Below, in pieces: positions 6,696 to 51,610 of a DNA stretch of 64,000 nt. Made by a program: the position numbers and the translations under genes. The first letter of the stretch is position 1; each line of letters begins with the position of its first letter. Origin of the DNA: a virus; IMG/VR virus record IMGVR_UViG_3300022689_000178, positions 1-64,000 of that record; one strand, written 5' to 3'. The notes beneath the pieces are model-generated. The model made no database searches. It was not told where the DNA came from and saw nothing but the letters and a program-made list of their open reading frames with translations.

Positions 6696-7250
6696 ATGAG
6701 TTGTACGGCAATATTAGAAAAGTTTTCTATTCCAAAAAATTATACTGAGGATCAAAAAAAATGGATTACAAGAGCTATTATGGTAAAAACTGATCCGATA
6801 AAATATATGAAAAAAAAGAAAAAGCAAAGGCAGAAAAATGTAGTTAATAGTAATATTGCACCGGTCGAATGTGAAAAGGTTTTTGAAAAAGCAGTAAAGT
6901 ATTTTGAAATGTATGATTTAAAACCGGTTTTAATCACAGCCAGCATGTCAGTAAAAATACAATTGGAAAAGTCAGTAAGAAATTTAATCACATATAGACT
7001 CCCACGAATAGTTAATAATAAAATTGTAGGTAATTTGTATTTTAATGTGGTTAAAAATGATAATGATATTGAAAAACTGAAAATTGATCAGTTTGACATA
7101 AAAAGGGATAATTATGGACAGTTTAAAATTAATCGGATAACATTAGAGGATGTTTTAGAAATAATGACTGAAGAAAAGATTAGATATTTAAAAATTATCG
7201 CTAAACGAATAGATAATGAATATAGATATAATCAAAATAAGAAAACATGA
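6696..7250 (+). CDS. hypothetical basic protein
   Basis: 184-aa ORF overlapping the next gene (ATGA). Confidence 0.7.
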   Translation: MSCTAILEKFSIPKNYTEDQKKWITRAIMVKTDPIKYMKKKKKQRQKNVVNSNIAPVECEKVFEKAVKYFEMYDLKPVLITASMSVKIQLEKSVRNLITYRLPRIVNNKIVGNLYFNVVKNDNDIEKLKIDQFDIKRDNYGQFKINRITLEDVLEIMTEEKIRYLKIIAKRIDNEYRYNQNKKT

Positions 7251-7885
7251 AAAAATATAATGCTCAAAGAATAATTGAAATGATTAGTGATAAAGATAAA
7301 AAGGATTGTGTTATATTAAATTATGAAAAAAATGATACAATAAAAACGTTCCAGAAAATAGCAATTATAAAAAATGGAATAGTAAAATCTTTAAAAAATG
7401 ATAGAATCATAAAATTTTATAGACAAGATGATTTTATCAATTTAACCCACCTTTATAAATTTGAAAATACCCCAAAATTTATTTCTTGTAATGATTCTGA
7501 AATATTATATATACCAATATTAATAATGAAAAAATATATACAAGAAAACATATATTTTTCGGAATCTGTATTTGAATCGTATTTTAATGAAATAAATGAT
7601 TTACAAAATAGAATACAGGTTTTATCTACCAATAATGCAAAAAAACGAATGGCCGAAACATTTGTATCTATGCAAGAAAAATATCCTAATAAAGATATAC
7701 AGATGCCTATAAATGGGAATGATTGGGCGTGTTATATGGGTATGCGGACGGAAACATTTATTCGCAAATTGCAGGAGTTCAGAAATGATAATATTATTGA
7801 ATGTGAAAAACAGCAAAAATCTAATAATTATGGAGTATATCGCATCCTGAATATTGAATTTTTAAAAAAATTTATTTTGATATGA
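7247..7885 (+). CDS. Crp/Fnr-family transcriptional regulator
   Basis: C-terminal HTH INGNDWACYMGMRTETFIRKLQEF (Crp-type G.T.ET..R); N-terminal cNMP-like fold (YEKNDTI..IIKNGIVK); 212 aa. Confidence 0.85.
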   Translation: MKKYNAQRIIEMISDKDKKDCVILNYEKNDTIKTFQKIAIIKNGIVKSLKNDRIIKFYRQDDFINLTHLYKFENTPKFISCNDSEILYIPILIMKKYIQENIYFSESVFESYFNEINDLQNRIQVLSTNNAKKRMAETFVSMQEKYPNKDIQMPINGNDWACYMGMRTETFIRKLQEFRNDNIIECEKQQKSNNYGVYRILNIEFLKKFILI

Positions 7886-7925
7886 TAATTGTCATAAATA
7901 TTATATATACAAAACATTAAATTTG
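7883..7925 (+). promoter_or_regulatory. Crp/Fnr-type box plus -7 element
   Basis: TGATAATTGTCA 7883-7894, 23-nt spacer, TAAATTTG 7918-7925. Confidence 0.75.
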
Positions 7926-7943
7926 TCGAAAAAATAATAAGAT

Positions 7944-8369
7944 ATGGATTATATAAATGATGCAAAGGTATATATTCCTTGCAAATACAAAGATGTTGAG
8001 CCGGGTGTGTATGATATAGTAACTATTGGGCATGTAACAGATATTGGATATAATGAAGTAGAAATATTGTATAATAATTCTATTATAGAAGTAAATATAT
8101 TTATTTTTGATTGGAAAATAGACATTAAATTTCCGGTATTGGTTTATAATGGGTTTAATGGAATACCGAAAATGAAAGATACAATAATGAAAGATGAATT
8201 GTATTGCATTAATCCGAGCGAAATGACTGTTAAAGAATTTGTAGATTTTTGCGGATCGATTAAAAATGCTTATCAAAGAGCATATATAATGGAGTGGGCA
8301 ATATCTTTTGAGAATGATAAAGTTAAGGAAAAGAGATTTATAAAGTCAATTGAGAAAAAAATAAAATAA
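7944..8369 (+). CDS. hypothetical protein
   Basis: 141-aa ORF directly after the promoter. Confidence 0.7.
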   Translation: MDYINDAKVYIPCKYKDVEPGVYDIVTIGHVTDIGYNEVEILYNNSIIEVNIFIFDWKIDIKFPVLVYNGFNGIPKMKDTIMKDELYCINPSEMTVKEFVDFCGSIKNAYQRAYIMEWAISFENDKVKEKRFIKSIEKKIK

Positions 8370-8908
8370 TGGCTATAAATATAGATCAAATAGAAGATTT
8401 GGATAAATTATCCATAAAAGAACTTACTCCTTTATTTGAATATTTTTTAAAATCGGAACAGTTTAAAAAATATTTAACTAAAGTTAAAAAAAAGATAGTT
8501 AGTATACCTGCCAAATCGCATCCATCACATACTCCATGCAAAGAATTTTTCCTGCAATTCTATAAAAACAATAAACCAAATGAATTTTATTGGACACCCA
8601 AAGAGGCGGCATCTTTAAATAAATTGTTACAAAAAATAGAATATTTACTAGGTGCAAAGAAAACCGAAAAAAAGGTATTAGAGGCTTTTAAAAGATTATT
8701 AATAAAAATACCGGATGTTGATCCTTTTGTTTATAGAGAATTAAGTATTTCTTTAATTAATTCAAGGTTTAATGAGATAATATCAAAAATTAGACAGCAT
8801 GGAAATTATAAAATGGTCAAAGTTCGGCCAATGGATGGTGGCAAGGTGATATATATATCGTTAGATGATTATAAGGCAAAAAAACATTTTTATAAAATTG
8901 TTCCATGA
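8369..8908 (+). CDS. hypothetical protein, possibly replication-related
   Basis: 179 aa, basic and helical; overlaps the previous stop codon. Confidence 0.65.
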   Translation: MAINIDQIEDLDKLSIKELTPLFEYFLKSEQFKKYLTKVKKKIVSIPAKSHPSHTPCKEFFLQFYKNNKPNEFYWTPKEAASLNKLLQKIEYLLGAKKTEKKVLEAFKRLLIKIPDVDPFVYRELSISLINSRFNEIISKIRQHGNYKMVKVRPMDGGKVIYISLDDYKAKKHFYKIVP

Positions 8909-9035
8909 AAAATATAAGATTGAAATGAGGCAAGGCAAATACGTTGCTGTTGCTTTTAGATGGATTCATAGCGTAGAAGAGTTAACTCAAATTTACGAGA
9001 GCATAACACGAAAGAAAATAGATGAGTCGATTTAA
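8906..9035 (+). pseudogene. 3' fragment of a cassette gene
   Basis: Open frame EKYKIEMRQG...YESITRKKIDESI whose TAA lies inside the ATTTAAC end motif; C-rich codon style unlike its neighbours. Confidence 0.4.
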
Positions 9036-9092
9036 CGCTTGCAGTTAGTTTGCATTGTTGGCGTTTTAATGCCGTCCAACGCCCTGTTATGT
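9030..9092. mobile_element. degenerate attC-like cassette site
   Basis: ATTTAACG...GCAGTTAGT...GTTGGCGTTTTAATGCCGTCCAAC...TGTTATG; shares GCAGTTAGT, CGTTTTAATG and TGTTA with the site at 17000. Confidence 0.55.
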
Positions 9093-9118
9093 TTATATTT
9101 TTTTTATTCAATAGAAAT

Positions 9119-9279
9119 ATGAAAAAAGACTATATTACAAATCCTACATTATTTGGTAAACCTGAAATTATTGGTTTTGGCTCAATGGATTTTCATATAA
9201 AAGAAGTGGAAGAAAAAAAGCTAATCGGATAATCGTAAAAAATTATTATTCAAAAAAGTTTTATAATAAACTTGAATAA
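9119..9279 (+). pseudogene. truncated, frameshifted Mom-like DNA-modification gene
   Basis: MKKDY..PEIIGFGSMDFHIKEVEEKK, then after adding one A to the A7 run at 9213-9219 ANRIIVKNYYSKKFYN; resembles Mu Mom IVGYGSKELRV...ARTIIQTKHYSRRFVN as recalled from memory. Confidence 0.65.
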
Positions 9280-9312
9280 AAGATAAATAGATTAATTATA
9301 ATTTTAAAGCTT

Positions 9313-9642
9313 ATGTTTTTATTAAAAAGTATAATACAGATAATAAAAGATATTCCAAATGTGAATGATATGGCAAAGATGAAGGAATCTGATGTTTATA
9401 GTGCAATAAATAAGGCGGTTAATCTTTGTTTTGTTACTTTGAACAATAATATAAAAAAATTATGTGATGGAAAAGTAATTATAGGCCATTATGAAAGAAT
9501 GTTTATGATTTGGGATCAGGCAGTTTATAAATTAAACAAAGATGGAATATATATAATTAAAAAAGATGGTTTGAAAGATTTTATTTTGCATGAAAAACCA
9601 ACATTAAAGGCATTTTTTGATAATAAAAATTCAAAAGTTTAA
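9313..9642 (+). CDS. hypothetical protein
   Basis: 109-aa ORF. Confidence 0.65.
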   Translation: MFLLKSIIQIIKDIPNVNDMAKMKESDVYSAINKAVNLCFVTLNNNIKKLCDGKVIIGHYERMFMIWDQAVYKLNKDGIYIIKKDGLKDFILHEKPTLKAFFDNKNSKV

Positions 9643-9710
9643 TTAATATGTCAAAAATTAGATAAAATTATAAAGAAAATTGGTCATGATTGAATAATTA
9701 ATAAAATAGT

Positions 9711-10367
9711 ATGATAAATAATAAAACTCTATTTGGATATGTTCAAATCCCATCAATCGCATATACCAATACAGAAATAATAAAAAATATTATGGTATTG
9801 CATGGTATTGATAGATTTGATTTGGATTGTACATATTCAATTGGTAATTTTTGGAAAAAATTGCCACAACCAAAATTTAAAAGTGATATTGAACCGCAAA
9901 GAGAAAATATAATTAAAGCAGATAGCAAAAACTTACCTTTTGAAAATATATCATTGAAAAGTATTATGTTTGACCCTCCTTTTATAATTGCAGGTACAAC
10001 TTATATGCAAAATAAAAAAGGGAGTAGTATAATTGCTAAACGGTTTGGTGCATATAAAAATTTTGATGATTTAAGAAGTCATTATAAAGAATCATTGAAA
10101 GATATTTATAGGGTATTAAAAAACAATGGTATATTGGTGTTTAAATGCCAGGATATTGTTTCAAATAGTAGAAATTATTTCACACATTGTATAGTTATGA
10201 ATATGGCCGTAGAAATTGGATTTTATCCTAAAGATTTATTCATTTTAATAACACGAAATAAAATAAATTCTTTTAATGGTGGAAGATGGAATAAACAATA
10301 CCATGCAAGGAAATATCATAGTTATTTTTGGGTGTTACAAAAGACTAAATGTAAAGTAATATATTGA
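9711..10367 (+). CDS. DNA amino-methyltransferase (phage type)
   Basis: DCTYSIGNFW SAM-binding motif, FDPPF catalytic motif, RVLKNNGILVFKCQD. Confidence 0.85.
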   Translation: MINNKTLFGYVQIPSIAYTNTEIIKNIMVLHGIDRFDLDCTYSIGNFWKKLPQPKFKSDIEPQRENIIKADSKNLPFENISLKSIMFDPPFIIAGTTYMQNKKGSSIIAKRFGAYKNFDDLRSHYKESLKDIYRVLKNNGILVFKCQDIVSNSRNYFTHCIVMNMAVEIGFYPKDLFILITRNKINSFNGGRWNKQYHARKYHSYFWVLQKTKCKVIY

Positions 10368-10376
10368 ATTTATAAT

Positions 10377-10856
10377 TTGAATTTAATGAAAAACAGGAAT
10401 CTTGATCATAAAGACCATTGGGCTACTCCTCCGGTATTCAAAGATAAAATTTATAAACAGTATAATATTGATTTTGATCCGTGTCCATATATGCACGATT
10501 TAACAAAATGGAATGGATTATATATAGAGTGGTGCAATAGAAATTATATTAATCCTCCATATTCTCGAAAGTTAAAAGAGGCATTTATAATAAAGGCATT
10601 AAAAGAAAGTAAAAAAGGAAAATTATGTGTATTATTATTGCCGGTTTCAACCAGCACAAAAATTTTCCATGATATTATTTTATATAATGCAACAAAGATC
10701 GAATTTATCAAAGGCCGTATACCATTTATCGGAATTAATTCTAAAGGACAGTATGTAAATTGGCATTTATGGAATAAGCCTGTACCTAAAAATATGGAAC
10801 AAATAAAAAATAGTGGTATGCACGATAGTATGATTGTTATATTTGGTAAAATATAA
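10377..10856 (+). CDS. phage Dam-like N6-adenine methyltransferase
   Basis: WATP, FDPCP, W..NYINPPYS, LLPVSTST and IKGRI motifs. Confidence 0.9.
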   Translation: MNLMKNRNLDHKDHWATPPVFKDKIYKQYNIDFDPCPYMHDLTKWNGLYIEWCNRNYINPPYSRKLKEAFIIKALKESKKGKLCVLLLPVSTSTKIFHDIILYNATKIEFIKGRIPFIGINSKGQYVNWHLWNKPVPKNMEQIKNSGMHDSMIVIFGKI

Positions 10857-10868
10857 AATATAAAATGT

Positions 10869-12719
10869 ATGAAAAAAGAAATTAATGGTTTTGAGATAGA
10901 TAAATATAATGTTCATGGTTTTGATTTATCCAATAAAGAGGAGGGTAAAACAACGTCAATATGTGTTTTTTGTTCTAAAGATAGAAAACCACAAAATCAA
11001 AAGCAAAAATGTGTTGAAATTGATTTGAATATTGGATGGTTTACATGTCAGCATTGTGGCGAGTCTGGTCAATTGCATACATTTAAAAAAAAGAAAATAG
11101 ATTCAAAAAGAAAAGTATTTAAAAAGCCGGAATGGAAAAATATAACGAATTTATCCGAGTCAGTTGTAAAATGGTTTGAAAATGAACGTAAAATATCACA
11201 AAATACATTAAAGAATGCAAGGGTGGGTAGTGGTATAAAAAAAATGCCGCCTGAATGGAATAAATCAAAAGTGATATGTTTCACATATTTCCGGTTCAAT
11301 GAATTGATAAATATAAAATATCGTTCACGTTCTAAGGATTTTATGTTATATACCGGAGCGGAATTAATTTTATATGGCTATGATAATATAATTCAATCAA
11401 CAGAATGTATTATTGTTGAGGGTGAAATTGATCAATTGACTTGGCTTGATGCCAGATATAATTATTGTGTATCTGTTCCAAATGGTGCTACTTTAAAACG
11501 TATAAATACTGAATATTTAGATAGTGCCATAGAAGATGGCATTTTTGAAAACAAAGAAAAAATATATATAGGAACGGATAATGATGAGGCCGGAATAATA
11601 TTGAGGGATGAGCTTGTAAGAAGGTTAGGTGCGGAACGATGCTATAAATTGGATTTTGGAGATTATAAAGATTCTAATGCTTTATATGTAGATAGTTGTA
11701 ATAAATACGGAAAGGAAAAAGCAAGAGAAATATTATTGGAGGTAAAAAATAATGCAAAAACTTTTCCTATACAGGGTGTAATTGAATTGTCAGACGTTGA
11801 GTCCGATTTGGACGTATTATATGAAGAAGGATTAAAAAAAGGCCTTAGTTTGCCATTTGAGGATTTATCCATAACGGTCGATTTGGGGAGGATTTTAACG
11901 ATTACAGGCATACCCGGACATGGTAAAACCGCAGGGGTGCATCAAATTTTATCCTATTTTTCTACTGTTTATGATTATAAAGCTGGCATATTTACTCCAG
12001 AATCATATCCACCAAAATTGTTTTTTTCATTAGCTATTGAAATAATATGCGGTTGTAAATTTAATAGCAAATATTTAAAAAAACAGGATTATATACAAGC
12101 AAAAGACTTTATAAAATCATATTATAAGTTTATATATCCAGAATCATTTTATTTGGATGATATATTAGAATCTGCCAGACAGCTAGTATATAGAGTAGGT
12201 ATTAAAATATTGGTGATAGATGCTTATAATAATGTTTTACACAAAATGCAAAAGTTTGAACGTGATGATTTATACGTTGAACGGTTTTATATTAAATTGC
12301 ATGAATTTGCTAAAAGATATAATATTTTAATAATTCTTGTCGCTCATCCGGTTAAGATTGAAAGGAGAAAAGATGGTTCATTTAATATTCCTACTGCTTA
12401 TGACATAAAAGGTGGTTCGGCTCATTATGAGAAAAATGATTTTATAATGTGTTTTTATCGGAATTATAAAGAGAAATTAACCGATGTAATAGTACAAAAA
12501 ATAAAATTCAGACATCTTGGAGAGGTGTGTTCAAAAAGCTATAAATTCAATGGATATAATAGTAGGTTTTATTTATCTACAATGGATAAAGATAATAGTA
12601 ATTGGATAAAAAATCCACCGATATTAGAAAGTGAAAACATGGAATTTGATGGACATTTAATTAATAATAATGATGGAGACATATTTGATAGAATGGAAGG
12701 AGATGAAGCTCCATTTTAA
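10869..12719 (+). CDS. primase-helicase (T7 gp4/Twinkle-like)
   Basis: Zn finger (CVFC...CQHC), TOPRIM (VEGEID, TDND.AG), Walker A GIPGHGKT, VIDAYN, LVAHP; acidic tail. Confidence 0.93.
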   Translation: MKKEINGFEIDKYNVHGFDLSNKEEGKTTSICVFCSKDRKPQNQKQKCVEIDLNIGWFTCQHCGESGQLHTFKKKKIDSKRKVFKKPEWKNITNLSESVVKWFENERKISQNTLKNARVGSGIKKMPPEWNKSKVICFTYFRFNELINIKYRSRSKDFMLYTGAELILYGYDNIIQSTECIIVEGEIDQLTWLDARYNYCVSVPNGATLKRINTEYLDSAIEDGIFENKEKIYIGTDNDEAGIILRDELVRRLGAERCYKLDFGDYKDSNALYVDSCNKYGKEKAREILLEVKNNAKTFPIQGVIELSDVESDLDVLYEEGLKKGLSLPFEDLSITVDLGRILTITGIPGHGKTAGVHQILSYFSTVYDYKAGIFTPESYPPKLFFSLAIEIICGCKFNSKYLKKQDYIQAKDFIKSYYKFIYPESFYLDDILESARQLVYRVGIKILVIDAYNNVLHKMQKFERDDLYVERFYIKLHEFAKRYNILIILVAHPVKIERRKDGSFNIPTAYDIKGGSAHYEKNDFIMCFYRNYKEKLTDVIVQKIKFRHLGEVCSKSYKFNGYNSRFYLSTMDKDNSNWIKNPPILESENMEFDGHLINNNDGDIFDRMEGDEAPF

Positions 12720-12732
12720 AAAAAATGATATT

Positions 12733-13614
12733 ATGGAATTAACAAAACAAGATAAAATAAAAGCATTGAAATATTTCAAAGATATGGAGTATGACAAAAA
12801 AAAGTCATATAACGAATTATCAATGGTAGAAAAATTGAAGTGTGCGGCAAAATTAATGAATAGTTCTGTTTTTGTTAATACATTTAAAATACAGTTAGAA
12901 AAAGACTGTTTTGTGAAAAAAGAAAAGGATTATTGGACAGATGATTTATATTTATTTTTGCTTGATTTGAAATATGATAAGGATATTAATTTTAATTTGT
13001 TTTGCGATCATGATAAAGCATTGAATTATTTTAAGAAAATAGAAGCGAAAGATTTATTTTTCCCATATTTTAGAATTGAAGTAAAAGAAGGATTAATTCG
13101 GGGTGTTTGGTGTATAAGGGCAATAAAAAAGAAAATAAAAGGTGCTGATAAAATAGATAAACGAACATTAGAACAATTAGAAGATGAATTGTCCCAAAAA
13201 GCAATTGATATAAATATGGTTTATAATTATAAACAAATTAGATTAAAAAAATTAGCCAATTCATTTGTTTGTTATGATTATAATAAACAATTAAATAGTG
13301 GCATATATGAAAACATGTTAATACCGGAAGATCATGAAGTGGGTATGTGTTTTAAATATTTAGGGTATGTTCATACAGTTAAAGAATTAAAGACAAAAAA
13401 AGGAAATCCGTATCAAAGAATTGATGTAGAAGGGAAAACGGATAATCATAAGTTTATGATATGGGATAACATGGGTTTAAAGTTTAAGCCAAATACTGCA
13501 TATATATTTTTTATGAAAATTATATCAAAAAAAAACAAAAGAACTGGTATTGCTGGTAAAGAATTGAAAATTGTCGATGCAAAAAGAATATTAAAAAACA
13601 CAGAGGTATATTGA
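12733..13614 (+). CDS. degenerate DNA polymerase III alpha C-terminal-like protein (HhH/OB fold)
   Basis: GLIRGVWCIRAI resembles DnaE GL..IKG; GYVHTVKELKTKKGNPY resembles the DnaE OB fold; likely start MELTKQ at 12733. Confidence 0.5.
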   Translation: MELTKQDKIKALKYFKDMEYDKKKSYNELSMVEKLKCAAKLMNSSVFVNTFKIQLEKDCFVKKEKDYWTDDLYLFLLDLKYDKDINFNLFCDHDKALNYFKKIEAKDLFFPYFRIEVKEGLIRGVWCIRAIKKKIKGADKIDKRTLEQLEDELSQKAIDINMVYNYKQIRLKKLANSFVCYDYNKQLNSGIYENMLIPEDHEVGMCFKYLGYVHTVKELKTKKGNPYQRIDVEGKTDNHKFMIWDNMGLKFKPNTAYIFFMKIISKKNKRTGIAGKELKIVDAKRILKNTEVY

Positions 13615-13654
13615 TAATTGTCATAAAATATTATATTTAATTAATTTAATTTTG
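13612..13654 (+). promoter_or_regulatory. Crp/Fnr-type box plus -7 element
   Basis: TGATAATTGTCA 13612-13623, 23-nt spacer, TAATTTTG 13647-13654. Confidence 0.75.
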
Positions 13655-13674
13655 TAGTATAAAAAAAAGGAAAT

Positions 13675-14253
13675 ATGGATTTAAAAAGATGTTATATAGA
13701 TGTTGAAACAACCGGTGTAAAGCATTGGAAAAATTGTGTCATACAATTAGCTGGCATTATTGAGATAAATAATAAAATTAAAGAAATATTTGAGTTTAAG
13801 CTTGCCCCTCATCCTAAAGCTAAAATTGAACCTTCCGCATTAGAAGTGAGTGGTTATACATTAGAACAAATAAAAAAATTTCCTGATAGATTTATTTCAT
13901 TCAATCAATTTACCGACATATTAAATAAATATGTTGATAAGTATAATAAAAAAGATAAATTCTTTTTTGTTGGATATAATTCATCTTTTGATGTTAATTT
14001 CATACGGGGTTTATTTAAGCAATGTAATAATGATTATTATGGTGCATATTTTTGGTCAGGGAGTATTGATATAATGGCATTGAGTTTATATGGATTAGCG
14101 AATGAAAGATATAAAATGTCAAATTTTAAATTAATGACAGTTGCAAGGCAATTAGGGATTCAAATAGATGAATCAAAATTACATGATGCCTTATATGACA
14201 TTCAAATTACACGAGATATATTTTTAATATTTGAACGATCTATAATTAAATAA
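13675..14253 (+). CDS. DEDDh 3'-5' exonuclease (DnaQ-like)
   Basis: IDVETTG, GYNSSFD, LHDALYD. Confidence 0.92.
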   Translation: MDLKRCYIDVETTGVKHWKNCVIQLAGIIEINNKIKEIFEFKLAPHPKAKIEPSALEVSGYTLEQIKKFPDRFISFNQFTDILNKYVDKYNKKDKFFFVGYNSSFDVNFIRGLFKQCNNDYYGAYFWSGSIDIMALSLYGLANERYKMSNFKLMTVARQLGIQIDESKLHDALYDIQITRDIFLIFERSIIK

Positions 14254-14279
14254 AATTTATAAATTAAAATTTTAATACC

Positions 14280-15107
14280 ATGAATAAAGAATCACGTAGA
14301 GAAAGAAGGCGTAAAAATTTATCAGGCCAAACTATTCCAACACTTGATATAATATCACGGTTTTCTGTAAAGGAAAATGGAGGAAAACCCAAATTCCGTT
14401 ATTGGAATAGAGATAATGGCGATAAGGGGGAAGAGGTTTTTTTTAATAATCAAATTGAAGGAATATTAATAGGTGAGGCGATGCAATTTAGCGCTTATGA
14501 TAATGAAAATGAAGTAATGTATAATAGTTCAATGTATTTACGGAAAAACAATAAAATTGCTTTATTTAAAAAAGGTAATAAGGTTGCAAGTGGTACATTG
14601 GAAAATTTGGAGAAATATCTTGTTAGTGAAGGGGTTTCACAAATAAAGAAAAGATGGATATATATAATTTTAACAAAAACCGGATTAATATCAGTTGAAA
14701 CAAATGTATCTATTGCCATTGATCAAATAAAGCAAATTAAGAAAAATAATAAAGATGCTTTTATTGATAATTTCATTGTTTTAAAACCGGATGTATATGA
14801 TCCTGATGATAAATATTTCTCACAGGGATTACATAAAAGAATGAAAATTACAAAGGCTAAGAAAAACTATCCATTTTTTGCACGTATTGAAGTTGGCGAT
14901 GAAATTTCGGAAAATGATTTTGATGAGTATAATGAAGAGTTTTATGCGGAACAATTTACCGAATGGACGGATTTTATCATGGCCGATGGATATGAAAAGG
15001 TAGATAATGATGGTGAAACTTATAATGAAAATAGTAAGTCGAAAGATTCTTTTGTAGAAAATGGAGATGATATGGAATCAGACGAGACGGATGATTTGCC
15101 ATTTTAA
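14280..15107 (+). CDS. putative single-stranded DNA-binding protein
   Basis: Acidic tail ending DDLPF; located in the replication module. Confidence 0.6.
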   Translation: MNKESRRERRRKNLSGQTIPTLDIISRFSVKENGGKPKFRYWNRDNGDKGEEVFFNNQIEGILIGEAMQFSAYDNENEVMYNSSMYLRKNNKIALFKKGNKVASGTLENLEKYLVSEGVSQIKKRWIYIILTKTGLISVETNVSIAIDQIKQIKKNNKDAFIDNFIVLKPDVYDPDDKYFSQGLHKRMKITKAKKNYPFFARIEVGDEISENDFDEYNEEFYAEQFTEWTDFIMADGYEKVDNDGETYNENSKSKDSFVENGDDMESDETDDLPF

Positions 15108-15119
15108 TTTTATGCAAAT

Positions 15120-15398
15120 ATGGTAGAGGCAGTTGCAAGATTCATAAAATTATACTTTCAAGAGTTTAATGGTGGAAAAAATAGCAGAGTATTAATTCGG
15201 TTATATATAAAAGATTTGAAATCATTTATATTAACTAATAAATGCGATAATGAATGGATGGATGTGGATATGTATGTTTCTTTTAATTTGCGGTATCATA
15301 TAAAATTGTTCAAGAAAAATGATCCGGTTAAAGTGCGATTTATGTTTAGTCATAAATATAAAGATTTTCAATTGTTGAATATTTCTATTTATAATTAA
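15120..15398 (+). CDS. small OB-fold-like hypothetical protein
   Basis: 92 aa; FKKNDPVKVRF pattern. Confidence 0.5.
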   Translation: MVEAVARFIKLYFQEFNGGKNSRVLIRLYIKDLKSFILTNKCDNEWMDVDMYVSFNLRYHIKLFKKNDPVKVRFMFSHKYKDFQLLNISIYN

Positions 15399-15399
15399 A

Positions 15400-15819
15400 A
15401 TGATTAAAGAATATTTTGCAGTTAGAAATGAATCGGAAAAACGGAATTTATACAGATCATTGAAAAATACAGAATTTCCTTTTTGTGTTGTCATTCGGAA
15501 TATAGAGAATGTACGATCAGTAAAAGAAAATTCTTATTTGTGGGGAGTTGTTTATGCTTATATTTCAGATTATACCGGACATACTATAGAATTTATTCAT
15601 AAATTTTATAAAAAATTGTTTTTACAAAAACTTGAAGTATTGTCCGGTAAATTAGTTTTAACGAATGCAAGCACTAAAGATATAAGTACATATATGTTTA
15701 ATTATTATATTGAACGTGTAAAAGCACATGCGTTATTGGAGTTGGATATATATATACCTGATCCAAATGAATTATTAAATGATAGTGAAACATTGAGCTT
15801 ACAGTTAAAATATGAATAG
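15400..15819 (+). CDS. NinB/YbcN-like recombination protein
   Basis: RSVKENSYLWGVVY..ISDYTG..H...STKDIST..F..YIE..IYIPDP. Confidence 0.75.
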   Translation: MIKEYFAVRNESEKRNLYRSLKNTEFPFCVVIRNIENVRSVKENSYLWGVVYAYISDYTGHTIEFIHKFYKKLFLQKLEVLSGKLVLTNASTKDISTYMFNYYIERVKAHALLELDIYIPDPNELLNDSETLSLQLKYE

Positions 15820-15828
15820 AAACTAAAA

Positions 15829-16440
15829 TTGATTAAAATGCAAAAAAAAGATTTTTATTTTAAGGGAGTTAAATTATTGCAAGAAAAAGGCAAATCGGTA
15901 GTATACTATGATGAACGGATTGTAATAAAAAATGAAAGTGGCGAGAATGAAGAGAAGTATATTTACACTACTTGTATGCCACCGTATTTCCCACACGATG
16001 ATTTAAAAATGGAATTTAAACGATTAATTCCGTTGTATGCTAAAATGTGTAAAAGGCACGAATCTGAAGTAAGAGTTACATATTTAGGCATAGAGAAAAA
16101 GAAGGAAAATATGATTTATGTTTTACGTGGTGTGGTAAGAGAACCGGCTGGATACTATAATTCTTATAATCCGCATAAATTAAATGAAAAACTTAGAGAA
16201 TATTATGATGAGAATAATATTTTACATAAGATTGCAGAAAAAATCATTAAGGAAACATTTGATTGGGTAACAGGCAAGAAAAATAGTAATTCAAATATTC
16301 AACGATTGTGGGAAGAAGAGGATTTAAAAATAGCTCATGAAGGTATTCCAATTGAAGGTATATCGGATATTTTAATGGAAGAAGATGTAAGTTTTGAAAC
16401 TGAAACTCAAATTGAATCTGAACCTGAATCCGAATCCTAA
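15829..16440 (+). CDS. hypothetical protein with acidic tail
   Basis: 203-aa ORF followed by a terminator. Confidence 0.7.
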   Translation: MIKMQKKDFYFKGVKLLQEKGKSVVYYDERIVIKNESGENEEKYIYTTCMPPYFPHDDLKMEFKRLIPLYAKMCKRHESEVRVTYLGIEKKKENMIYVLRGVVREPAGYYNSYNPHKLNEKLREYYDENNILHKIAEKIIKETFDWVTGKKNSNSNIQRLWEEEDLKIAHEGIPIEGISDILMEEDVSFETETQIESEPESES

Positions 16441-16452
16441 ATTGAAAAATAA

Positions 16453-16484
16453 AAAAACCGTCTTTATTTATAAAGACGGTTTTT
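16453..16484 (+). terminator. intrinsic terminator
   Basis: AAAAACCGTCTTTA-TTTA-TAAAGACGGTTTTT. Confidence 0.85.
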
Positions 16485-16558
16485 AATGCTCTTTGAATTT
16501 GAACGATTAATACAATACAAAAATAATAAATAATTTTCAATAAAACAAAGTTTTAATT

Positions 16559-17090: not shown

Positions 17091-18074
17091 ATGATAGTAA
17101 AAGAAAAAATAGGGAGGGGGTTTTTATATTTTATGGACGTATTGGAGGGTTTAAAATTACTACTTGACAATAGCCAAGATTTAATAATAGTTGACCCACC
17201 TTATTACAAGACTGTAAATGAGAAATGGGATAAACAATGGAAGACCGAAAAAGAATATTTAGACTGGTGTAGATTATGGTTTGCTGAATGCGTAAGAGTA
17301 CTGAAAGACACAGGTAGTTTTTATTGCTATGGAAACTTTGACATACTGAGCAAACAAAAAGTATTGATATTTGATGATGCGCTGAACTTTAGGCAAAACA
17401 TTACATTAAACAAAGGATTGAAAAGTATTGCTGGAAGAACAAGCGACAAACTTAGAATGTTCCCGACTGCAAGTGAATACTTGGTGTTTTACACTAAACA
17501 AGAAATGTGGTTTGAAACACCCTTTTCAATTATTATGAAAAGACAAATGAAAGAAAAGGGATTAACTCAGATTGATATTTCTAAACTTATACTTTCACGA
17601 AATGGTAATTTAACTGGATGGGTGCATAATAAGATTAAGGGCATACAATTGCCAACAGCAGAGCAATGGAACAAAATATGCAATTTGTTTGAAATTAAAA
17701 ATGAATATGATTTATTGTGTGAAAGCTACGAAGAACAAAGGTTTACTTTTAACCTACCAACAGGACAAACCGATGTTTGGGATTTTACGCCCGACAAAGT
17801 TAGATTTGGAAATAAGACACAGAAACCACAAGACATAAGTAGAAGAATTATAAAAGCAAGTAGTAACGAAGAACAAAGTGTATTGATACCATTTGCAGGG
17901 AGTGGAAGTGAATGTGAAGCTTGCGAAGTATTGGGTAGAAATTGGACTGCGTTTGAGAATGACCAATTTAGCATTGACATTATACACGAACGATTTAAAA
18001 ACCTTAAAGCTTTTGAAAAAAGCAAAGAGCGTGGGCTTTTTTCTTTTACGGATGAACAGAACAAAGCTGATTAA
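17091..18074 (+). CDS. beta-class DNA amino-methyltransferase with an internal HTH-like insert (cassette gene)
   Basis: VDPPY, RVLKDTGS, TQKP, PFAGSGS; insert MKEKGLTQIDISK...GIQLPTAEQWNKICNLF. Confidence 0.9.
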   Translation: MIVKEKIGRGFLYFMDVLEGLKLLLDNSQDLIIVDPPYYKTVNEKWDKQWKTEKEYLDWCRLWFAECVRVLKDTGSFYCYGNFDILSKQKVLIFDDALNFRQNITLNKGLKSIAGRTSDKLRMFPTASEYLVFYTKQEMWFETPFSIIMKRQMKEKGLTQIDISKLILSRNGNLTGWVHNKIKGIQLPTAEQWNKICNLFEIKNEYDLLCESYEEQRFTFNLPTGQTDVWDFTPDKVRFGNKTQKPQDISRRIIKASSNEEQSVLIPFAGSGSECEACEVLGRNWTAFENDQFSIDIIHERFKNLKAFEKSKERGLFSFTDEQNKAD

Positions 18075-20379: not shown

Positions 20380-21138
20380 ATGGCAAGAACAATCATAACT
20401 GATCCATTTTATACGCCTAAAGGTAAGGCACGGGAATATACAGGAAAAGATAATATAGGGCTAAATGTATATAAATATTGTCCAAATGGATGTATTTATT
20501 GCTATTGTCCTTTTATGTTGTGTAAAAAACCTATTGAATTTTATAATGAGCCGGATTATACCGATAATATAATCGCACGTGTAAAATTATATGCTTATAG
20601 ATATGCCAGAAAAGAAGTATTTTTAAGTTTTATTGGCGATATTGGAATTATCGATAAAAATAATTATTTTGTGCAAATATTAGAAATATTTAAAAATCAT
20701 AATATAAGACCAAGAATTTTAACGAAATCAAATATTCATAATTTATTACCATTGTTGAAAGAATGTAATGCTATATTAGGTTGTACAATTGTTACTATAA
20801 AAGAATCAATAAGGGAAAAAAATGAGCCATTTGCATCCACAATTTCAGAAAGATTACAATTATTGAATGAAGCGAAATGTAATGGCATAAAAACATGGAT
20901 TAGCATTGAACCAATTATAGATGTTTATGAAATTTTAACAATTGTAAGATATACACAGAAATATATTGATTATTATTTTATCGGAAAAATGAATTATAAT
21001 GATATTGGAAGTAATGAAACTAAATTAAAGGAAGTTTTGCCAATGGTATATGAATTTTTATCTATGGCAAAGATATCTTTTACTTTTGGAGAAGATACGA
21101 AATTATTAATAAATAAGTGTGGATATACCAAAGTTTAA
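20380..21138 (+). CDS. radical SAM protein (SPL-like subgroup)
   Basis: LNVYKYCPNGCIYCY (CxxxCxxC), ILTKS, EP.AS...ERL, WISIEP. Confidence 0.88.
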   Translation: MARTIITDPFYTPKGKAREYTGKDNIGLNVYKYCPNGCIYCYCPFMLCKKPIEFYNEPDYTDNIIARVKLYAYRYARKEVFLSFIGDIGIIDKNNYFVQILEIFKNHNIRPRILTKSNIHNLLPLLKECNAILGCTIVTIKESIREKNEPFASTISERLQLLNEAKCNGIKTWISIEPIIDVYEILTIVRYTQKYIDYYFIGKMNYNDIGSNETKLKEVLPMVYEFLSMAKISFTFGEDTKLLINKCGYTKV

Positions 21139-28387: not shown

Positions 28388-28406
28388 CAGTAATATTTTT
28401 TATAAA
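28388..28406 (+). promoter_or_regulatory. putative late promoter CAGTAATATT followed by an AT-rich TAAA block
   Basis: The same 10-mer occurs upstream of eight late/structural units (28388, 37444, 38970, 44975, 47507, 51609, 52644, 55881), with a variant at 49890. Confidence 0.7.
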
Positions 28407-33725: not shown

Positions 33726-33774
33726 TGTTAAATAGATTTATTTATTTCACAAATTTATAATATAGTGCAATAAA
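33726..33774 (+). repeat. 49-bp direct repeat, copy 1 (putative early promoter)
   Basis: 45/49 identical to 34237-34285; each copy lies between a terminator and a gene. Confidence 0.75.
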
Positions 33775-38537: not shown

Positions 38538-38897
38538 TTATTTTGTAATATCATTTAAAATAACTTTTGGTTTCCAAATTCTTTGTGATGAATGTTGGTT
38601 TTCTTGCCAATGAATAGTACAATTTTTAGTTATTCGTATTGAAATAAATCTAATGAATTTAATAATATCTGAATCTTTTTTCAATTCTATTGGTGGCCAT
38701 AACCAATTTGATTTGTTTTTTATATATGGATTATAATATCCTGCAATAATTTCATTATCCCTTAAAGTAATTATTAAATCATATTCAAAATTATTATAAA
38801 TTATACTTTCATATAATCTTTGTTTTAATTCTCGGATTATATCAAAATTTGTTTTATTATAAGTAGAATAAGATTTGTGTTTAAATAAATGAAACAT
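38538..38897 (-). CDS. hypothetical protein (minus-strand moron-like gene)
   Basis: Fills an intergenic gap and has its own minus-strand promoter. Confidence 0.7.
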   Translation of the reverse strand: MFHLFKHKSYSTYNKTNFDIIRELKQRLYESIIYNNFEYDLIITLRDNEIIAGYYNPYIKNKSNWLWPPIELKKDSDIIKFIRFISIRITKNCTIHWQENQHSSQRIWKPKVILNDITK

Positions 38898-38928: not shown

Positions 38929-38971
38929 CAAAATTAAAATAAATATTTATTTGCACTTATGATAATTGTCA
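38929..38971 (-). promoter_or_regulatory. Crp/Fnr-type box plus -7 element
   Basis: Box 38960-38971, 23-nt spacer, minus-strand TAATTTTG at 38929-38936. Confidence 0.75.
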
Positions 38972-38998
38972 GTAATATTTTAATAAAAATTTTATAAT

Positions 38999-44968: not shown

Positions 44969-45013
44969 AATAAACAGTAATATTTTTTTAAAAATAATTA
45001 AAAATCAAGAATC

Positions 45014-45814: not shown

Positions 45815-45867
45815 TTGCAAACAAATAAAACAGTAAATAAAGTAATAAACACTAAAATATTAAAAAA

Positions 45868-47430: not shown

Positions 47431-47461
47431 AGATTAAATTCATTTTTTTAAAAATATTTTG

Positions 47462-47494
47462 GCCTTCAATTTTTTAATTGAAGGCTTTTTTTTT
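47462..47494 (+). terminator. intrinsic terminator
   Basis: GCCTTCAATT-TTTT-AATTGAAGGC followed by a T run. Confidence 0.85.
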
Positions 47495-47549
47495 ATCATT
47501 TATTTACAGTAATATTATAATAAATTATTAATTTTTAAAATTTAACACC

Positions 47550-47789
47550 ATGCTAATTAAACGAAAAAGTACATATTTGCGAAAAAAATCAATTATTGGA
47601 AATCGTGAAATAAATTGGTTGAATGAACCGGTAGAATTTTCTGCTAAAGAGGGAAAAGAATTAATCAAAAATTTTCCGGATCGTTATGAAGAGGTTATAT
47701 CTAAAGATATTAAATCTAATGAAAATGAACCTAAAAAAATAACACAAAAAACTTTGAAAAAAAAGACATCTAAAAATTTTACTGAATAA
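47550..47789 (+). CDS. small basic protein
   Basis: 79 aa, directly after a late-promoter motif. Confidence 0.65.
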   Translation: MLIKRKSTYLRKKSIIGNREINWLNEPVEFSAKEGKELIKNFPDRYEEVISKDIKSNENEPKKITQKTLKKKTSKNFTE

Positions 47790-47792
47790 AAT

Positions 47793-48557
47793 ATGGAATT
47801 AGATTTAGAAATAACATGTAAAATTGATAATACTCTTGCAATGAGTTGTGATGAGTTAAAAACAACTTATGCAACAGATATTGCTTTTGAGGGATTAGGT
47901 GGACAAAGATTGACATGCTCAACAGTTGAAAATAAAATTAAAACTGAGCAAGTCAAATTGGAAAACATGTTGGATATAAAAATTGTAAAACAACAATTAA
48001 AAGAACAGCAAGAATACTATCGAGAACAATTCCGAGAATGGGGCTATATAAAAGTGCATAATAATATATCCGAAGTTATTTCTGTTAATGGTTATGTAAA
48101 TAATAACAAAGTAATTGAATTAGAATTAACTGATTTATCAATTAAACAACAAATTGATAAATTCAGGAATATATATATAATGCCGGCGGGTATTGGATTA
48201 TGGCAAACTACATTATGGCCATTTATATTCCGGTATGGTTACCGGACAGATTATATTCCAAATTTTTGGCATATTGAATATATATCCGGTTTTGACCAAA
48301 TACCGGAAGATATAAAAGAGGCAATTGGAAAAAAAACAATGTTACAAGTATATAATATTTTAGGTAACATATTATTTGGAACTGGTATCGCATCAACCTC
48401 CAAATCAATAGATGGATTAAGTCAATCAGTCGGTACAACACAATCGGCTACAAATGCTTTATTCGGAGCATCTATTAATCAATTTCAAGATGAATTAAAG
48501 CAAGAAATCCCTGCTTTAAAAGATAAATATAGAGGTATCACCGCACTAAAATTATAA
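47793..48557 (+). CDS. head-tail adaptor (neck) protein
   Basis: IEYISGF..IPEDI, GIASTSKSIDGLSQS; position. Confidence 0.75.
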   Translation: MELDLEITCKIDNTLAMSCDELKTTYATDIAFEGLGGQRLTCSTVENKIKTEQVKLENMLDIKIVKQQLKEQQEYYREQFREWGYIKVHNNISEVISVNGYVNNNKVIELELTDLSIKQQIDKFRNIYIMPAGIGLWQTTLWPFIFRYGYRTDYIPNFWHIEYISGFDQIPEDIKEAIGKKTMLQVYNILGNILFGTGIASTSKSIDGLSQSVGTTQSATNALFGASINQFQDELKQEIPALKDKYRGITALKL

Positions 48558-48562
48558 AACAC

Positions 48563-49318
48563 ATGCGAAGTAAGCAACAATTAAGGAGCGATTTTGATAC
48601 TATTGGTTTTGAAAATCTTGTTTATCAAAATGCAGCCAAAATAAAACTTGAAAAAGCTATACTTTGTCCATGTGGACGAAAAGATAACCAACATTCAAAA
48701 CGTTGCATTAATTGTAATGGTACAGGATTTTTCTTTGATGAGTATTCTCAAAATATTTGGGGTATGATAACAAGTTTAAATTATAACCAAATATTAGGGT
48801 TAACACGTGAGGAGCTTAATGCAACGGCTAATTTAACATTATCTAAAACTTATGATGCACGGTTACAAGTGTATGACAAATTAACTATATTAGATGGAAA
48901 AGGAATTACCACCTACAAACAAATATTCCCTGAAATAAGGGAGAATAATTTAGGAATTGATGTATTGGATGTGCAAGTAAATCAAAAGATACAATCTATT
49001 GAAATGATTTATTTATATATTGATGATAAAACACCACTGCAAAAATTAAATGAATCCGATTATAGTTATTATAACAATATCATTCAATTTTCAGATGTAT
49101 TAAAAAATCAATTACAACAATCCGGAAATGATTCTTATAGTATGACTGTACGATATAGATATTTGCCTACATATCAAGTTATGCGAACAGAACATAATAT
49201 AAGACAAACAAGAATTTTGCAAACTGGTGGAATAGAAGCATTAGAATTTTTACCATTAATGTATTTAATTCAAGAATCATGGTATTTTGCCCAAAATACC
49301 GGATATGAAAATAATTAA
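48563..49318 (+). CDS. neck / head-closure protein
   Basis: CPC...CINCNGTG motif typical of SPO1-like neck proteins. Confidence 0.7.
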   Translation: MRSKQQLRSDFDTIGFENLVYQNAAKIKLEKAILCPCGRKDNQHSKRCINCNGTGFFFDEYSQNIWGMITSLNYNQILGLTREELNATANLTLSKTYDARLQVYDKLTILDGKGITTYKQIFPEIRENNLGIDVLDVQVNQKIQSIEMIYLYIDDKTPLQKLNESDYSYYNNIIQFSDVLKNQLQQSGNDSYSMTVRYRYLPTYQVMRTEHNIRQTRILQTGGIEALEFLPLMYLIQESWYFAQNTGYENN

Positions 49319-49497
49319 ATATTTTCCATATCAATATTACCTTCACATTTAGGACAAAGTAATTTATCAAATTTTTTATCTGTCAATAAATTTTCAATAT
49401 CATTTGTTTCAAAATCACAATTCAAACAATAAAACGTAAAATTAATATTAGCATCCTGTATGCTACCATCTATATTAATTATTATATCATTTTCCAT
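49315..49497 (-). CDS. small Zn-ribbon protein
   Basis: CLNC...CPKC. Confidence 0.65.
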   Translation of the reverse strand: MENDIIINIDGSIQDANINFTFYCLNCDFETNDIENLLTDKKFDKLLCPKCEGNIDMENI

Positions 49498-49501
49498 GAT
49501 C

Positions 49502-49846
49502 TCAATATTTAAAATTATTTTTTGTTTTCATTACTACTTCAAAAAATTCAGTAAATCTATTTTGTAATTCAGTAAATAAATATTGTTTCAATCGTGCATT
49601 AATATCATGCGAAATCATAGCAAAAATGGACATATTAAATTCAATTGTATCTTCTGTAATAACATTTTTTGTAAAAATATTATTTAATTGGGTTTCATTA
49701 ATCCGTTTACGTTTTATTTCAGGATGGTTAATATGAATCCATTTTCCTTTATGAATTACTTCAACCGGATTAATAATATTAATGATACAATTAGAATCAT
49801 TTAAAGTTATTTCACCATACACTAAATTATATTTTTTTTCAGTCAT
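49502..49846 (-). CDS. hypothetical protein (minus-strand moron-like gene)
   Basis: 114 aa with its own promoter. Confidence 0.7.
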   Translation of the reverse strand: MTEKKYNLVYGEITLNDSNCIINIINPVEVIHKGKWIHINHPEIKRKRINETQLNNIFTKNVITEDTIEFNMSIFAMISHDINARLKQYLFTELQNRFTEFFEVVMKTKNNFKY

Positions 49847-49877
49847 TATATATTATTATTTATTGTTAATAATAAGG

Positions 49878-49920
49878 CAAAGATATTAATAGTAATATTA
49901 AATATAAATGACAATTATCA
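49878..49920 (-). promoter_or_regulatory. Crp/Fnr-type box plus -7 element
   Basis: Minus-strand TGATAATTGTCA (49920-49909), 23-nt spacer, TATCTTTG (49885-49878). Confidence 0.75.
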
Positions 49921-49933
49921 TAAACTTAAAATT

Positions 49934-50818
49934 ATGGTTATACAAGAAATAAATTTAGGAGATTATATATATGATATTGGTTTAAATGCGCAAGAAATTG
50001 AAGAAATTACTAAATTAACAGTACAACAAATAACCAATAAAATAAAAAAGAATATTGTAGAAAAAGCCAGCAATGAATTATTTAGAACTAAATCCAATTA
50101 CATAAAAAATGTAAACACTCAATTTTCAAATGATGGATTAAAGGGATATATTTTTCTTGCAAATAAAAAAGCATTAATGATTGAAGAAGGATTATCTCCT
50201 TTTGATATGAAAACCGGTTTTGCTAATTCTGAAAAAGCAAAAAGGACTGAAACAAATAAAGAAAAATTGCAAAAAAAAGGTAAACAAAAATGGATGGAAA
50301 AAGGATGGCATCTAACCATTCCATTTAGATTAGGTGTACCGGAATCAATTGGTGAAGAATTTTCCGGTAATTTGAATGATAGTATATACAATATTGCTTT
50401 ACGTGATTTGGAAAAAAAAGTATCACAACGGGCAGAAAATACGAAAACCGGAGAATCATTTATAAAAAATAAATATAGTGGAATAGGTATAAATCAATTA
50501 GCGAACTTAAATAAAGGATATGAAATTCCTTCAATAAATAGGAGGGACAAATGGACATCACCTGCTCCTCCTATATATACACATAAATCCGCAATGTTTG
50601 AGGGTGTAACTAAAATAGAAGAGGTTTATAAAAAAACAGTACAAAGTACATATTTAAAATTTAGACGTGTAAGTAGTAATTCCGATCCGAATTCATGGAT
50701 GCATCCTGGCATAAAAGCTCATAAATATTTTGATAAAGTAATGCAAGAAATAGATTTTGACCAAGAAACATCAAATTACATAGATAAAGTATTGTTACAA
50801 TTAGGATTTATTGAATAA
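49934..50818 (+). CDS. neck/tail-completion protein
   Basis: IEEG.SPFDMK, LTIPFR, FRRVS.NSDP.SWMHPG. Confidence 0.75.
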   Translation: MVIQEINLGDYIYDIGLNAQEIEEITKLTVQQITNKIKKNIVEKASNELFRTKSNYIKNVNTQFSNDGLKGYIFLANKKALMIEEGLSPFDMKTGFANSEKAKRTETNKEKLQKKGKQKWMEKGWHLTIPFRLGVPESIGEEFSGNLNDSIYNIALRDLEKKVSQRAENTKTGESFIKNKYSGIGINQLANLNKGYEIPSINRRDKWTSPAPPIYTHKSAMFEGVTKIEEVYKKTVQSTYLKFRRVSSNSDPNSWMHPGIKAHKYFDKVMQEIDFDQETSNYIDKVLLQLGFIE

Positions 50819-51518
50819 TATTTTTATCCTTAAAATGTTCTAATGTCCATGTGTCAAAATCAAAATTGATATAATCATTTTCTTGTAAATATGTTTCAAT
50901 TATTTGAGCAATTTGTTTCCGATTCCCATCTTTAGTTTTATTAAATCTGCCTTTTATATAATAATAATAAGCAATTTTATATATTTGACATTCCTTATCA
51001 TTATATTTATTACTATTAGTTACTTTTTGTAATTCATTATACTTTTCAGTTAATTCTATTAATTGATTATTCTTTACTTTAATCAAACTATTTAATTTAT
51101 CAATTTCATATTTACTACTATTATTTACTTTTTTTGTTTTTTGTCTAACAAAACCAACACCTAAAGTAACTAATATAGTAAAAAATGAGTACAATATAGA
51201 TACATATTCAATTCGTTTAGTTTCTTCTATTAATGTATTGTACCATAAAAAAATTACTAATCCATCAAATATGGCAAAACAAAATTTCAATAAAAAGTCA
51301 TTACTTCTTTTTTCAAATATTTTATTTTGTGCGATTACATAAATTGTTGCTGCCGAATAACAAAAAGCAAATATAGCATTTGCAATATTTTCTATTAAAT
51401 CGTTGACCGTTTCAAAATTTGCAGCCCAAAATATTAATCGTGTATTACTGATTAATAAATGAAACAATAAGGAAATTAAAATGATAATTGAAAAGTGTTT
51501 TGTCATAAAATTTTTCAT
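50808..51518 (-). CDS. multi-pass membrane protein with coiled coil (moron-like)
   Basis: Four TM segments followed by a coiled coil. Confidence 0.7.
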   Translation of the reverse strand: MKNFMTKHFSIIILISLLFHLLISNTRLIFWAANFETVNDLIENIANAIFAFCYSAATIYVIAQNKIFEKRSNDFLLKFCFAIFDGLVIFLWYNTLIEETKRIEYVSILYSFFTILVTLGVGFVRQKTKKVNNSSKYEIDKLNSLIKVKNNQLIELTEKYNELQKVTNSNKYNDKECQIYKIAYYYYIKGRFNKTKDGNRKQIAQIIETYLQENDYINFDFDTWTLEHFKDKNIIQ

Positions 51519-51567
51519 AATAATAGTATTTGAAAAGTTATTAATTATATTTAAAAAACAACATTTG

Positions 51568-51610
51568 CAATAATAAAGTAATTTAAAACTAATCTTTATG
51601 ACAAAAATCA
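51568..51610 (-). promoter_or_regulatory. variant Crp/Fnr-type box plus -7-like element
   Basis: TGACAAAAATCA 51599-51610, 23-nt spacer, minus-strand TATTATTG at 51568-51575. Confidence 0.6.

Follow-up and report, generated by a model that had tools for sequence, protein, structure and literature searches.

At class II promoters, the dyad bound by an activator lies approximately 41.5 bp upstream of the transcription start and overlaps the -35/-33 region. The Crp/Fnr-family regulator FNR has a recognition helix with the motif E--SR and reads TTGAT half-sites; FixK2 of Bradyrhizobium belongs to the same family but has no bound cofactor. It activates FNR-type boxes at the output end of a cascade; FixLJ controls its production, and the protein is in turn subject to redox and protease control. 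Among phages, VqmA-Phi of vibriophage VP882 is a homologue of a host regulator that senses a ligand and acts in the lysis-lysogeny decision, and T4 MotA/AsiA and Mu Mor are phage-made activators that define a promoter class between early and late genes. Here we describe a candidate Crp/Fnr regulon in the IMG/VR virus record IMGVR_UViG_3300022689_000178: a gene for a 212-amino acid (aa) Crp/Fnr-family protein, P0001 (7247-7885, plus strand), and five composite promoters, each with a box of the form TGAY-N4-RTCA. All positions refer to the window, the whole stretch of DNA that was analysed (bases 1-64,000 of the 76,824-bp record, which is estimated to be 72% complete and has a G+C content of 27%). 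We give an even chance to the reading that the five boxes are bound by P0001, which would activate from -41.5 with or without oxygen, and that a host FNR can probably read the boxes too.

The boxes are located at 7883, 13612, 38960, 49909, and 51599, and all five are intergenic. In four of them the box is exactly TGATAATTGTCA on one strand or the other, versus 0.06 copies of this 12-mer expected, and four or more copies were found in none of 100 shuffles. Each box is separated by exactly 23 nt from a -7-type element, TAnnWTTG; the complete composite occurs five times in the window, versus 0.01 expected by chance, and at every site a gene starts at a distance of 26-57 nt, counted from the first T of its -7 element. 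Two sites point into plus-strand genes (7944 and 13675) and three into minus-strand genes (38897, 49846, and 51518). The positions, spacing, and orientations given in the initial annotation are thus confirmed, as is its placement of the first box over the regulator's own stop codon. Four remaining TGAY-N4-RTCA words in the window (22523, 23774, 46848, and 61968) are chance occurrences, since they lie inside genes and have no -7 element. A scan of the whole 76,824-bp record (up to one mismatch and spacings of 22-24 nt allowed) revealed no further intergenic site, leaving the annotated set of five complete. A de novo search of the intergenic DNA for further enriched perfect dyads gave only A/T-rich low-complexity words.

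Promoter 1 (7883-7925, plus strand) consists of a box at 7883-7894 (TGATAATTGTCA), the 23-nt spacer, and the -7 element TAAATTTG at 7918-7925, with a predicted start at approximately 7930; the TGA of its box (7883-7885) is the stop codon of the P0001 open reading frame (ORF). Promoter 2 (13612-13654, plus strand) has its box at 13612-13623 and, after the same spacer, the -7 element TAATTTTG at 13647-13654 (predicted start approximately 13659), and here the box TGA (13612-13614) ends ORF 12670-13614. These two promoters are packed onto gene ends and are internal, with no terminator between. The remaining three are on the minus strand and have the same 23-nt spacer: promoter 3 (38929-38971) has its box at 38960-38971, the -7 element TAATTTTG at 38929-38936, and a predicted start at approximately 38924; promoter 4 (49878-49920) has its box at 49909-49920, the -7 element TATCTTTG at 49878-49885, and a predicted start at approximately 49873; and promoter 5 (51568-51610) has its box at 51599-51610 (minus-strand TGATTTTTGTCA), the -7 element TATTATTG at 51568-51575, and a predicted start at approximately 51563.

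These starts were derived from a start-site map of Flavobacterium psychrophilum, in which the -7 box TAnnTTTG occupies -12 to -5 (PMC9723704). Because of this placement and the 23-nt spacing, each box spans -47 to -36 relative to its predicted start and is centred at -41.5, which is exactly the class II geometry and bears out the value of about -41.5 given in the initial annotation. The TTG of the box was also considered as a Bacteroidota -33 element and rejected, as it is located 26 nt from the -7 element, too far for the usual -33/-7 spacing of approximately 17-23 nt. It is very improbable that the dyad is read by a factor outside the Crp/Fnr family, or serves as an upstream element without a dedicated protein, with the Crp/Fnr gene a bystander: a TGA-N6-TCA dyad at -41.5 is the signature geometry of this family, and the same site in host genomes (discussed below) precedes Crp/Fnr genes and classic FNR targets.

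P0001 is matched by the Pfam family HTH_Crp_2 at residues 134-208 (34.3 bits versus a cut-off of 27, E-value 2.3e-8), and this family was recovered again in a six-frame search of the record (35.3 bits). The only significant sequence matches of the protein in PDB are to FNR-type chains (E-value 5e-4, residues 39-184) and to 2gau, a Crp/Fnr-family protein of Porphyromonas gingivalis. An AlphaFold2 model made with a 111-sequence alignment has a predicted local distance difference test (pLDDT) score of 92.3, with strands across residues 22-90 and a helix at residues 102-128; a single-sequence version with a pLDDT of 41.6 was discarded. Full-length Foldseek matches include GlxR, FNR, 2gau, MtbCRP, FixK2, and NtcA at template modelling (TM) scores of 0.75-0.85 (0.78-0.85 for FNR, GlxR, and 2gau). 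As judged from this model, P0001 is a genuine full-length Crp/Fnr-fold protein, with a beta-barrel, a long dimer helix, and a winged helix-turn-helix (HTH), and the family assignment of the initial annotation stands.

The recognition helix of P0001 is TETFIR (E--IR). Three of its residues, E169, I172, and R173, are shared without change by the kin proteins P0002 and P0003 and by four host FNR-like proteins whose genes lie behind the same box. Compared with FNR of Escherichia coli and Aliivibrio fischeri (PDB 5cvr and 5e44), P0001 has a similar fold (TM 0.77-0.81), retains the Glu and Arg of E--SR, and is associated with a common TGA-N6-TCA core at -41.5; however, Ile replaces Ser in the helix, the half-site at the phage boxes is aTGAY rather than TTGAT, identity is approximately 16%, and P0001 is phage-encoded. 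The two proteins also differ in the residues with which FNR holds its cluster. In an alignment with host FNR-like proteins, P0001 has none of the four FNR-type cysteines and no N-terminal CxxC: its only cysteines are at positions 21, 81, 162, and 186, and a Leu is aligned with the Cys equivalent to FNR C122 ('SMVCEIP'). Without the N-terminal Cys cluster and with Leu at the C122-equivalent position, P0001 cannot hold a [4Fe-4S] cluster in the manner of FNR. Pfam cNMP_binding gives no match to P0001 at E <= 0.01; a host FNR-like protein scores 63 bits. Since both the four cysteines and the cyclic-nucleotide signature are missing, P0001 looks sensor-less and FixK-like, and ligand or redox sensing by the phage protein, which had been suggested, is not supported. 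P0001 is not an FNR orthologue, because the FNR-type cysteines are missing, and it is not a cyclic AMP receptor.

Taken together with the promoter geometry, these features suggest the following mechanism. P0001 would probably be produced from a box-less promoter at approximately 6661; its dimer would bind the five dyads and provide class II activation at -41.5 toward the sigma-A -7 box TAnnTTTG. The targets would be two plus-strand operons with replication, recombination, and methylase genes, as anticipated for the replication operons in the initial annotation, and three opposite-strand units of small genes in the late region. Because it has none of the four cysteines of the host proteins and no cyclic-nucleotide signature, P0001 would act without a signal requirement, like FixK, making the target genes independent of oxygen, while a host FNR-like protein would probably fire the same promoters at low oxygen. 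FixK2 (PDB 4i2o) is a structural match to P0001 (TM 0.75-0.80) and resembles it in this proposed role, but is a cellular protein. That P0001 binds the boxes, that it activates instead of repressing, when it would act, and that it does so independently of oxygen are inferences from these data.

The likely host of this phage is a member of the Bacteroidota, probably of the Flavobacteriales, because the closest cultured relatives with respect to the terminase are phages of Riemerella, Chryseobacterium, Croceibacter, and Cellulophaga, and the head protein is closest to those of Bacteroides phages. To look for the promoter design in hosts, prokaryote genomes, one for each species, were scanned for TGATAATTGTCA followed after 23 nt by TAnnWTTG. 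At least 120 exact matches were obtained, and 117 of the 120 matches listed are from Bacteroidota, mostly Flavobacteriales. Nearly all of 80 host loci examined are promoter-like, lying 13-30 nt ahead of an ATG. The genes downstream encode tandem Usp proteins (six loci), HemN-type radical SAM proteins (five), cytochrome c (five), a metallo-beta-lactamase plus rhodanese (four), CcoS/FixS (four), and Crp/Fnr regulators with an N-terminal CxxC (four: Cellulophaga, Maribacter twice, and Arenibacter), as well as CcoN, a copper nitrite-reductase-like protein, a major facilitator superfamily (MFS) transporter, a peroxiredoxin, and a CBS protein. Strong induction of cbb3-oxidase and haem-synthesis genes has been reported in a flavobacterium under oxygen limitation (PMC9723704). 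Judged by gene content and the cysteine pattern of the regulator, the host sites are an FNR/Anr/FixK-type low-oxygen regulon with autoregulation.

Five whole Flavobacteriales genomes (G006-G010) contain 5-19 sites each under a relaxed pattern. A reversed-pattern control gave 0-1 sites in four of these genomes; in G006 the result was five versus five, so there is no enrichment in that genome. The spacing is 23 nt in 45 of 66 host-genome sites and 24 nt in 10, and 21 further sites near anchor matches have the consensus TGA[CT]AA[TA]T[AG]TCA, followed by T. The host box TGAYAAWTRTCA is found 23 nt from TAnnTTTG in Flavobacteriales and other Bacteroidota (L121-L240 and G006-G010), and Flagellimonas sp. 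S174 has seven such sites in 53 kb (G010:3,016,303-3,069,744). The asymmetric form TGAT-N4-GTCA, with GTCA promoter-proximal, is present in four of the five boxes described here, in all three boxes of an unrelated phage record (G001, discussed below), and in only approximately 13 of 61 non-anchor host sites, an orientation bias of the phage sites. Neither an FNR box of flavobacteria nor a Crp/Fnr regulator of a phage was found described in the searchable literature. As a by-product, the comparison gives Flavobacteriales and other Bacteroidota a defined FNR-type box with a fixed spacing of 23 nt, together with a core low-oxygen regulon.

By this comparison the box, spacing, and -7 element were not devised by the phage for itself but are the FNR-type architecture of the host phylum. 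In design the phage promoters match the host regulon, and they may be members of it in vivo. The FNR-like regulators of Flavobacteriales (e.g. a 232-aa protein of Cellulophaga baltica, L176:1849-2544) have recognition residues T-E-S/T-x-I-R in common with P0001, and the same 12-mer at 23 nt precedes the genes for these regulators as well as hemN, ccoS, Usp, and cytochrome c genes. Unlike P0001, these proteins have four conserved cysteines (in an N-terminal CxxC, GVFCVR, and EVCFIP), approximately 20 extra N-terminal residues, and a clear Pfam cNMP_binding match; they are 19-21% identical to P0001 and form a separate clade. Because the box design is the host phylum's own, a host Crp/Fnr protein, mentioned in the initial annotation as another possible reader, becomes a serious rival, although we still rank it below the phage protein.

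In its strict form, which we consider somewhat unlikely, this rival holds that the five boxes have a host FNR-like regulator as their sole reader. Expression of the phage genes behind them would then be oxygen-conditional, with replication genes and moron-like minus-strand genes boosted under low oxygen, and P0001 would have another job: a different DNA target, control of host genes, or interference with host FNR. Other viral contigs bear on this point. A 41-kb phage record with terminal repeats (G001) has three composite promoters, at 14598, 22552, and 23155, and no Crp-like gene was found in it by profile and Pfam six-frame searches, suggesting that promoters of this kind can work in a phage with no regulator other than a host factor. 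Single intergenic copies are present in viral contigs L088/L115/L105 and L095, and none of the records checked (L088, L095, L105, and L102) has a Crp-like gene. L102 (IMGVR_UViG_3300027985_000861) is a G001 region with intergenic FNR-type composites. As far as these sequences indicate, phages of Bacteroidota may repeatedly have placed some of their genes under the low-oxygen control of the host.

These findings also weigh against P0001 as the reader of the boxes, as do three others. The phage sites cannot be distinguished from host sites, since a widespread host regulon has an identical box, the identical spacing, and an identical -7 element. The E--IR helix occurs in about half of 144 family members, so that the specificity of P0001 is compatible with the box but not diagnostic of it. 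Finally, in a quick tree P0001, P0002, and P0003 are placed outside the host FNR clade, although the deep nodes are unsupported. On the other side, a host-only reader leaves unexplained why a Crp/Fnr gene conserved in the lineage ends directly on box 1. The DNA-reading residues E, I, and R are kept in P0001, and the intergenic DNA of the phage holds no other candidate dyad. A host-only reader would also make essential replication genes partly dependent on a host signal. In addition, the 230 kb of four cultured Flavobacteriales phages in which this gene is absent contain no composite site. These points favour P0001 as a reader of the boxes.

Some further candidates came from viral sequences. 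A pattern scan of IMG/VR gave 35 single matches; the perfect-palindrome TGATAATTATCA matches were attributed to chance, since they lie within ORFs. Locus L103 (11306-12062) was rejected as an FNR site: it is a cI/cro-type divergent operator with repeated GTTGACAA words that adjoins a tyrosine integrase gene, and it gave a weak generic HTH match only. A faecal contig with a Crp-like ORF has no composite site.

P0001 is the only member of its group in a 90%-identity protein collection searched with a word index, and an exhaustive HMMER search recovered the 144 relatives mentioned above. The best two are P0002, with 196 aa and 36% identity, and P0003, with 193 aa; both are as short as P0001 and also lack the cysteines. 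They are encoded on a JGI contig (101,941 bp) and a Logan contig (32,080 bp), and the two closest homologues of the terminase large subunit (45% identity) are on contigs of the same sizes and sources. From these matching sizes and sources it appears that the two nearest kin phages also encode the regulator and that it has been kept in the lineage, with 25-36% identity across the kin phages. No related loci for P0001, P0002, P0003, or their alignment were found in the viral-contig or metagenome-contig collections. In the quick tree the three proteins form one clade (Shimodaira-Hasegawa-like approximate likelihood ratio test support 87-93). Both the divergence among kin and the position outside the host FNR clade make it doubtful that the gene was captured from a host, as had been proposed.

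Crp/Fnr regulators encoded by phages are almost unrecorded. PHROGs has no Crp/Fnr family, and even a host FNR-like protein of the usual kind finds no match there. In INPHARED, P0001 has no match, and only three of 50,697 records match a flavobacterial FNR-like protein in a tblastn search: MT837446.1, OR846589.1 (Enterococcus phage Efs 1-1-1), and MW302330.1 (Stenotrophomonas phage TS-12). The matching regions are unannotated or annotated as hypothetical, and MT837446.1 has no composite site. In the phage described here, the gene comes with a complete, readable set of candidate target promoters whose design can also be read in the host phylum, providing a testable case of a virus that reuses a host global-regulator circuit, either tying infection to oxygen or escaping that signal. 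Like VqmA-Phi, P0001 is a phage-carried homologue of a host regulator that would use the DNA-site logic of the host for the phage's own genes; it differs in belonging to another protein family, in having apparently lost its sensor, and in its predicted targets, which are replication and moron-like genes. T4 MotA/AsiA and Mu Mor use phage-specific elements or sigma appropriation, whereas the promoter class here copies the class II design of the host.

Two of the boxes adjoin a second promoter-like motif. The word CAGTAATATT occurs nine times in the window (0.56 expected), with eight intergenic copies before structural genes at 28388, 37444, 38970, 44975, 47507, 51609, 52644, and 55881. All intergenic copies are on the plus strand, at a distance of 25-42 nt from the ATG (85 nt for the portal gene); the word includes TAATAT and has no upstream partner, and could possibly be read by a phage-specific sigma or late factor. 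The copy at 38970-38979 precedes the gene for a 1598-aa DarB-like helicase (38999) and the copy at 51609-51618 precedes ORF 51646; in each case the CA of the word is the last two bases of a box (box 3 and box 5, respectively). A variant, TAGTAATATT, is located on the plus strand within the promoter 4 spacer (49890-49899). If P0001 acts as proposed, occupancy of the boxes may modulate these two late promoters, and a switch between a leftward FNR-type promoter and a rightward late promoter is plausible from this arrangement.

The overlap also allows for P0001 binding the boxes as a repressor or competitor that is part of a temporal switch, shutting off host-FNR-driven phage promoters, the host low-oxygen regulon, or the late promoters abutting boxes 3 and 5. 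With the boxes at 38960 and 51599 ending in the CA of CAGTAATATT, a dimer on either would sit approximately 20 nt upstream of the start expected for the late motif, a typical position for repression, and the sensor domain of P0001 is degenerate. Nevertheless, we consider such a role improbable: all five boxes retain the activating -41.5 geometry toward a -7 element, which repression alone would not need, and at the two plus-strand boxes there is no late motif on which a repressor could act.

A rather unlikely elaboration of the activator reading is that P0001 is a constitutively active, sensor-less mimic of the host oxygen regulator that imposes a 'pseudo-hypoxic' state on an aerobic cell. Were this so, 10-20 FNR-type promoters of the host would be bound in addition to those of the phage's own middle genes, turning on the high-affinity cbb3 oxidase, oxygen-independent haem synthesis, and stress proteins, and the two late promoters that share boxes would be toggled; in effect, a virus would seize a global regulon of its host by mimicking a transcription factor.

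With respect to its own expression, the P0001 gene is preceded by a 184-aa ORF with no family match (6696-7250, plus strand), the 3' end of which overlaps the start of the regulator gene by 4 nt; because of this overlap, the two are probably co-transcribed. A -7-type element, TAAATTTG, lies at 6661-6668 on the plus strand, 35 nt before ORF 6696, with no box-like word 22-24 nt upstream, and is the probable box-less promoter of the unit 6696-7250/7247-7885.

Behind promoter 1, an operon predicted from tight gene spacing to extend over 7944-13614 (plus strand) comprises ORFs 7944, 8369, and 9313, of no assigned function, genes annotated from PHROGs matches as those for two DNA methyltransferases (9711 and 10377) and a primase/helicase (10869), and a 314-aa ORF (12670). 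The operon behind promoter 2 (13675-16440, plus strand) encodes a DnaQ-like 3'-5' exonuclease (13675), ORFs 14280 and 15120, a NinB/Orf recombination mediator (15400), and ORF 15829, and ends in a terminator-like hairpin at approximately 16,450-16,490 (stem ccgtcttt / aaagacgg, then a T run). By their orientation, promoters 3-5 are predicted to drive opposite-strand genes within the late region, all on the minus strand: a 119-aa ORF (38538-38897) for promoter 3; ORFs of 114 aa (49502-49846) and 60 aa with two CxxC pairs (49315-49497) for promoter 4; and a 236-aa ORF with four hydrophobic segments (50808-51518) for promoter 5. None of these minus-strand ORFs has a family match.

The record is that of a tailed phage (approximately 77 kb) encoding a terminase large subunit, portal, head protease, major head protein, and tail-fibre-like protein, in addition to the primase/helicase, DnaQ-like exonuclease, NinB/Orf mediator, three methyltransferases, and the 1598-aa DarB-like helicase. 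Within IMG/VR, relatives of its terminase are limited to a distant group of approximately 490-aa proteins. The three DNA methyltransferase ORFs are in the early/middle region, at 9711-10856 (two ORFs, 9711 and 10377) and 17091-18074, as is a radical SAM ORF (20380-21138). The part of the record outside the window (64-77 kb) contains many small genes and long gaps bearing repeats. A repeat of approximately 37 nt, beginning TAAATTTGTGAAATAAATAAATC, is present in two copies, one at window position 33757 and one on the minus strand at genome position 65991.

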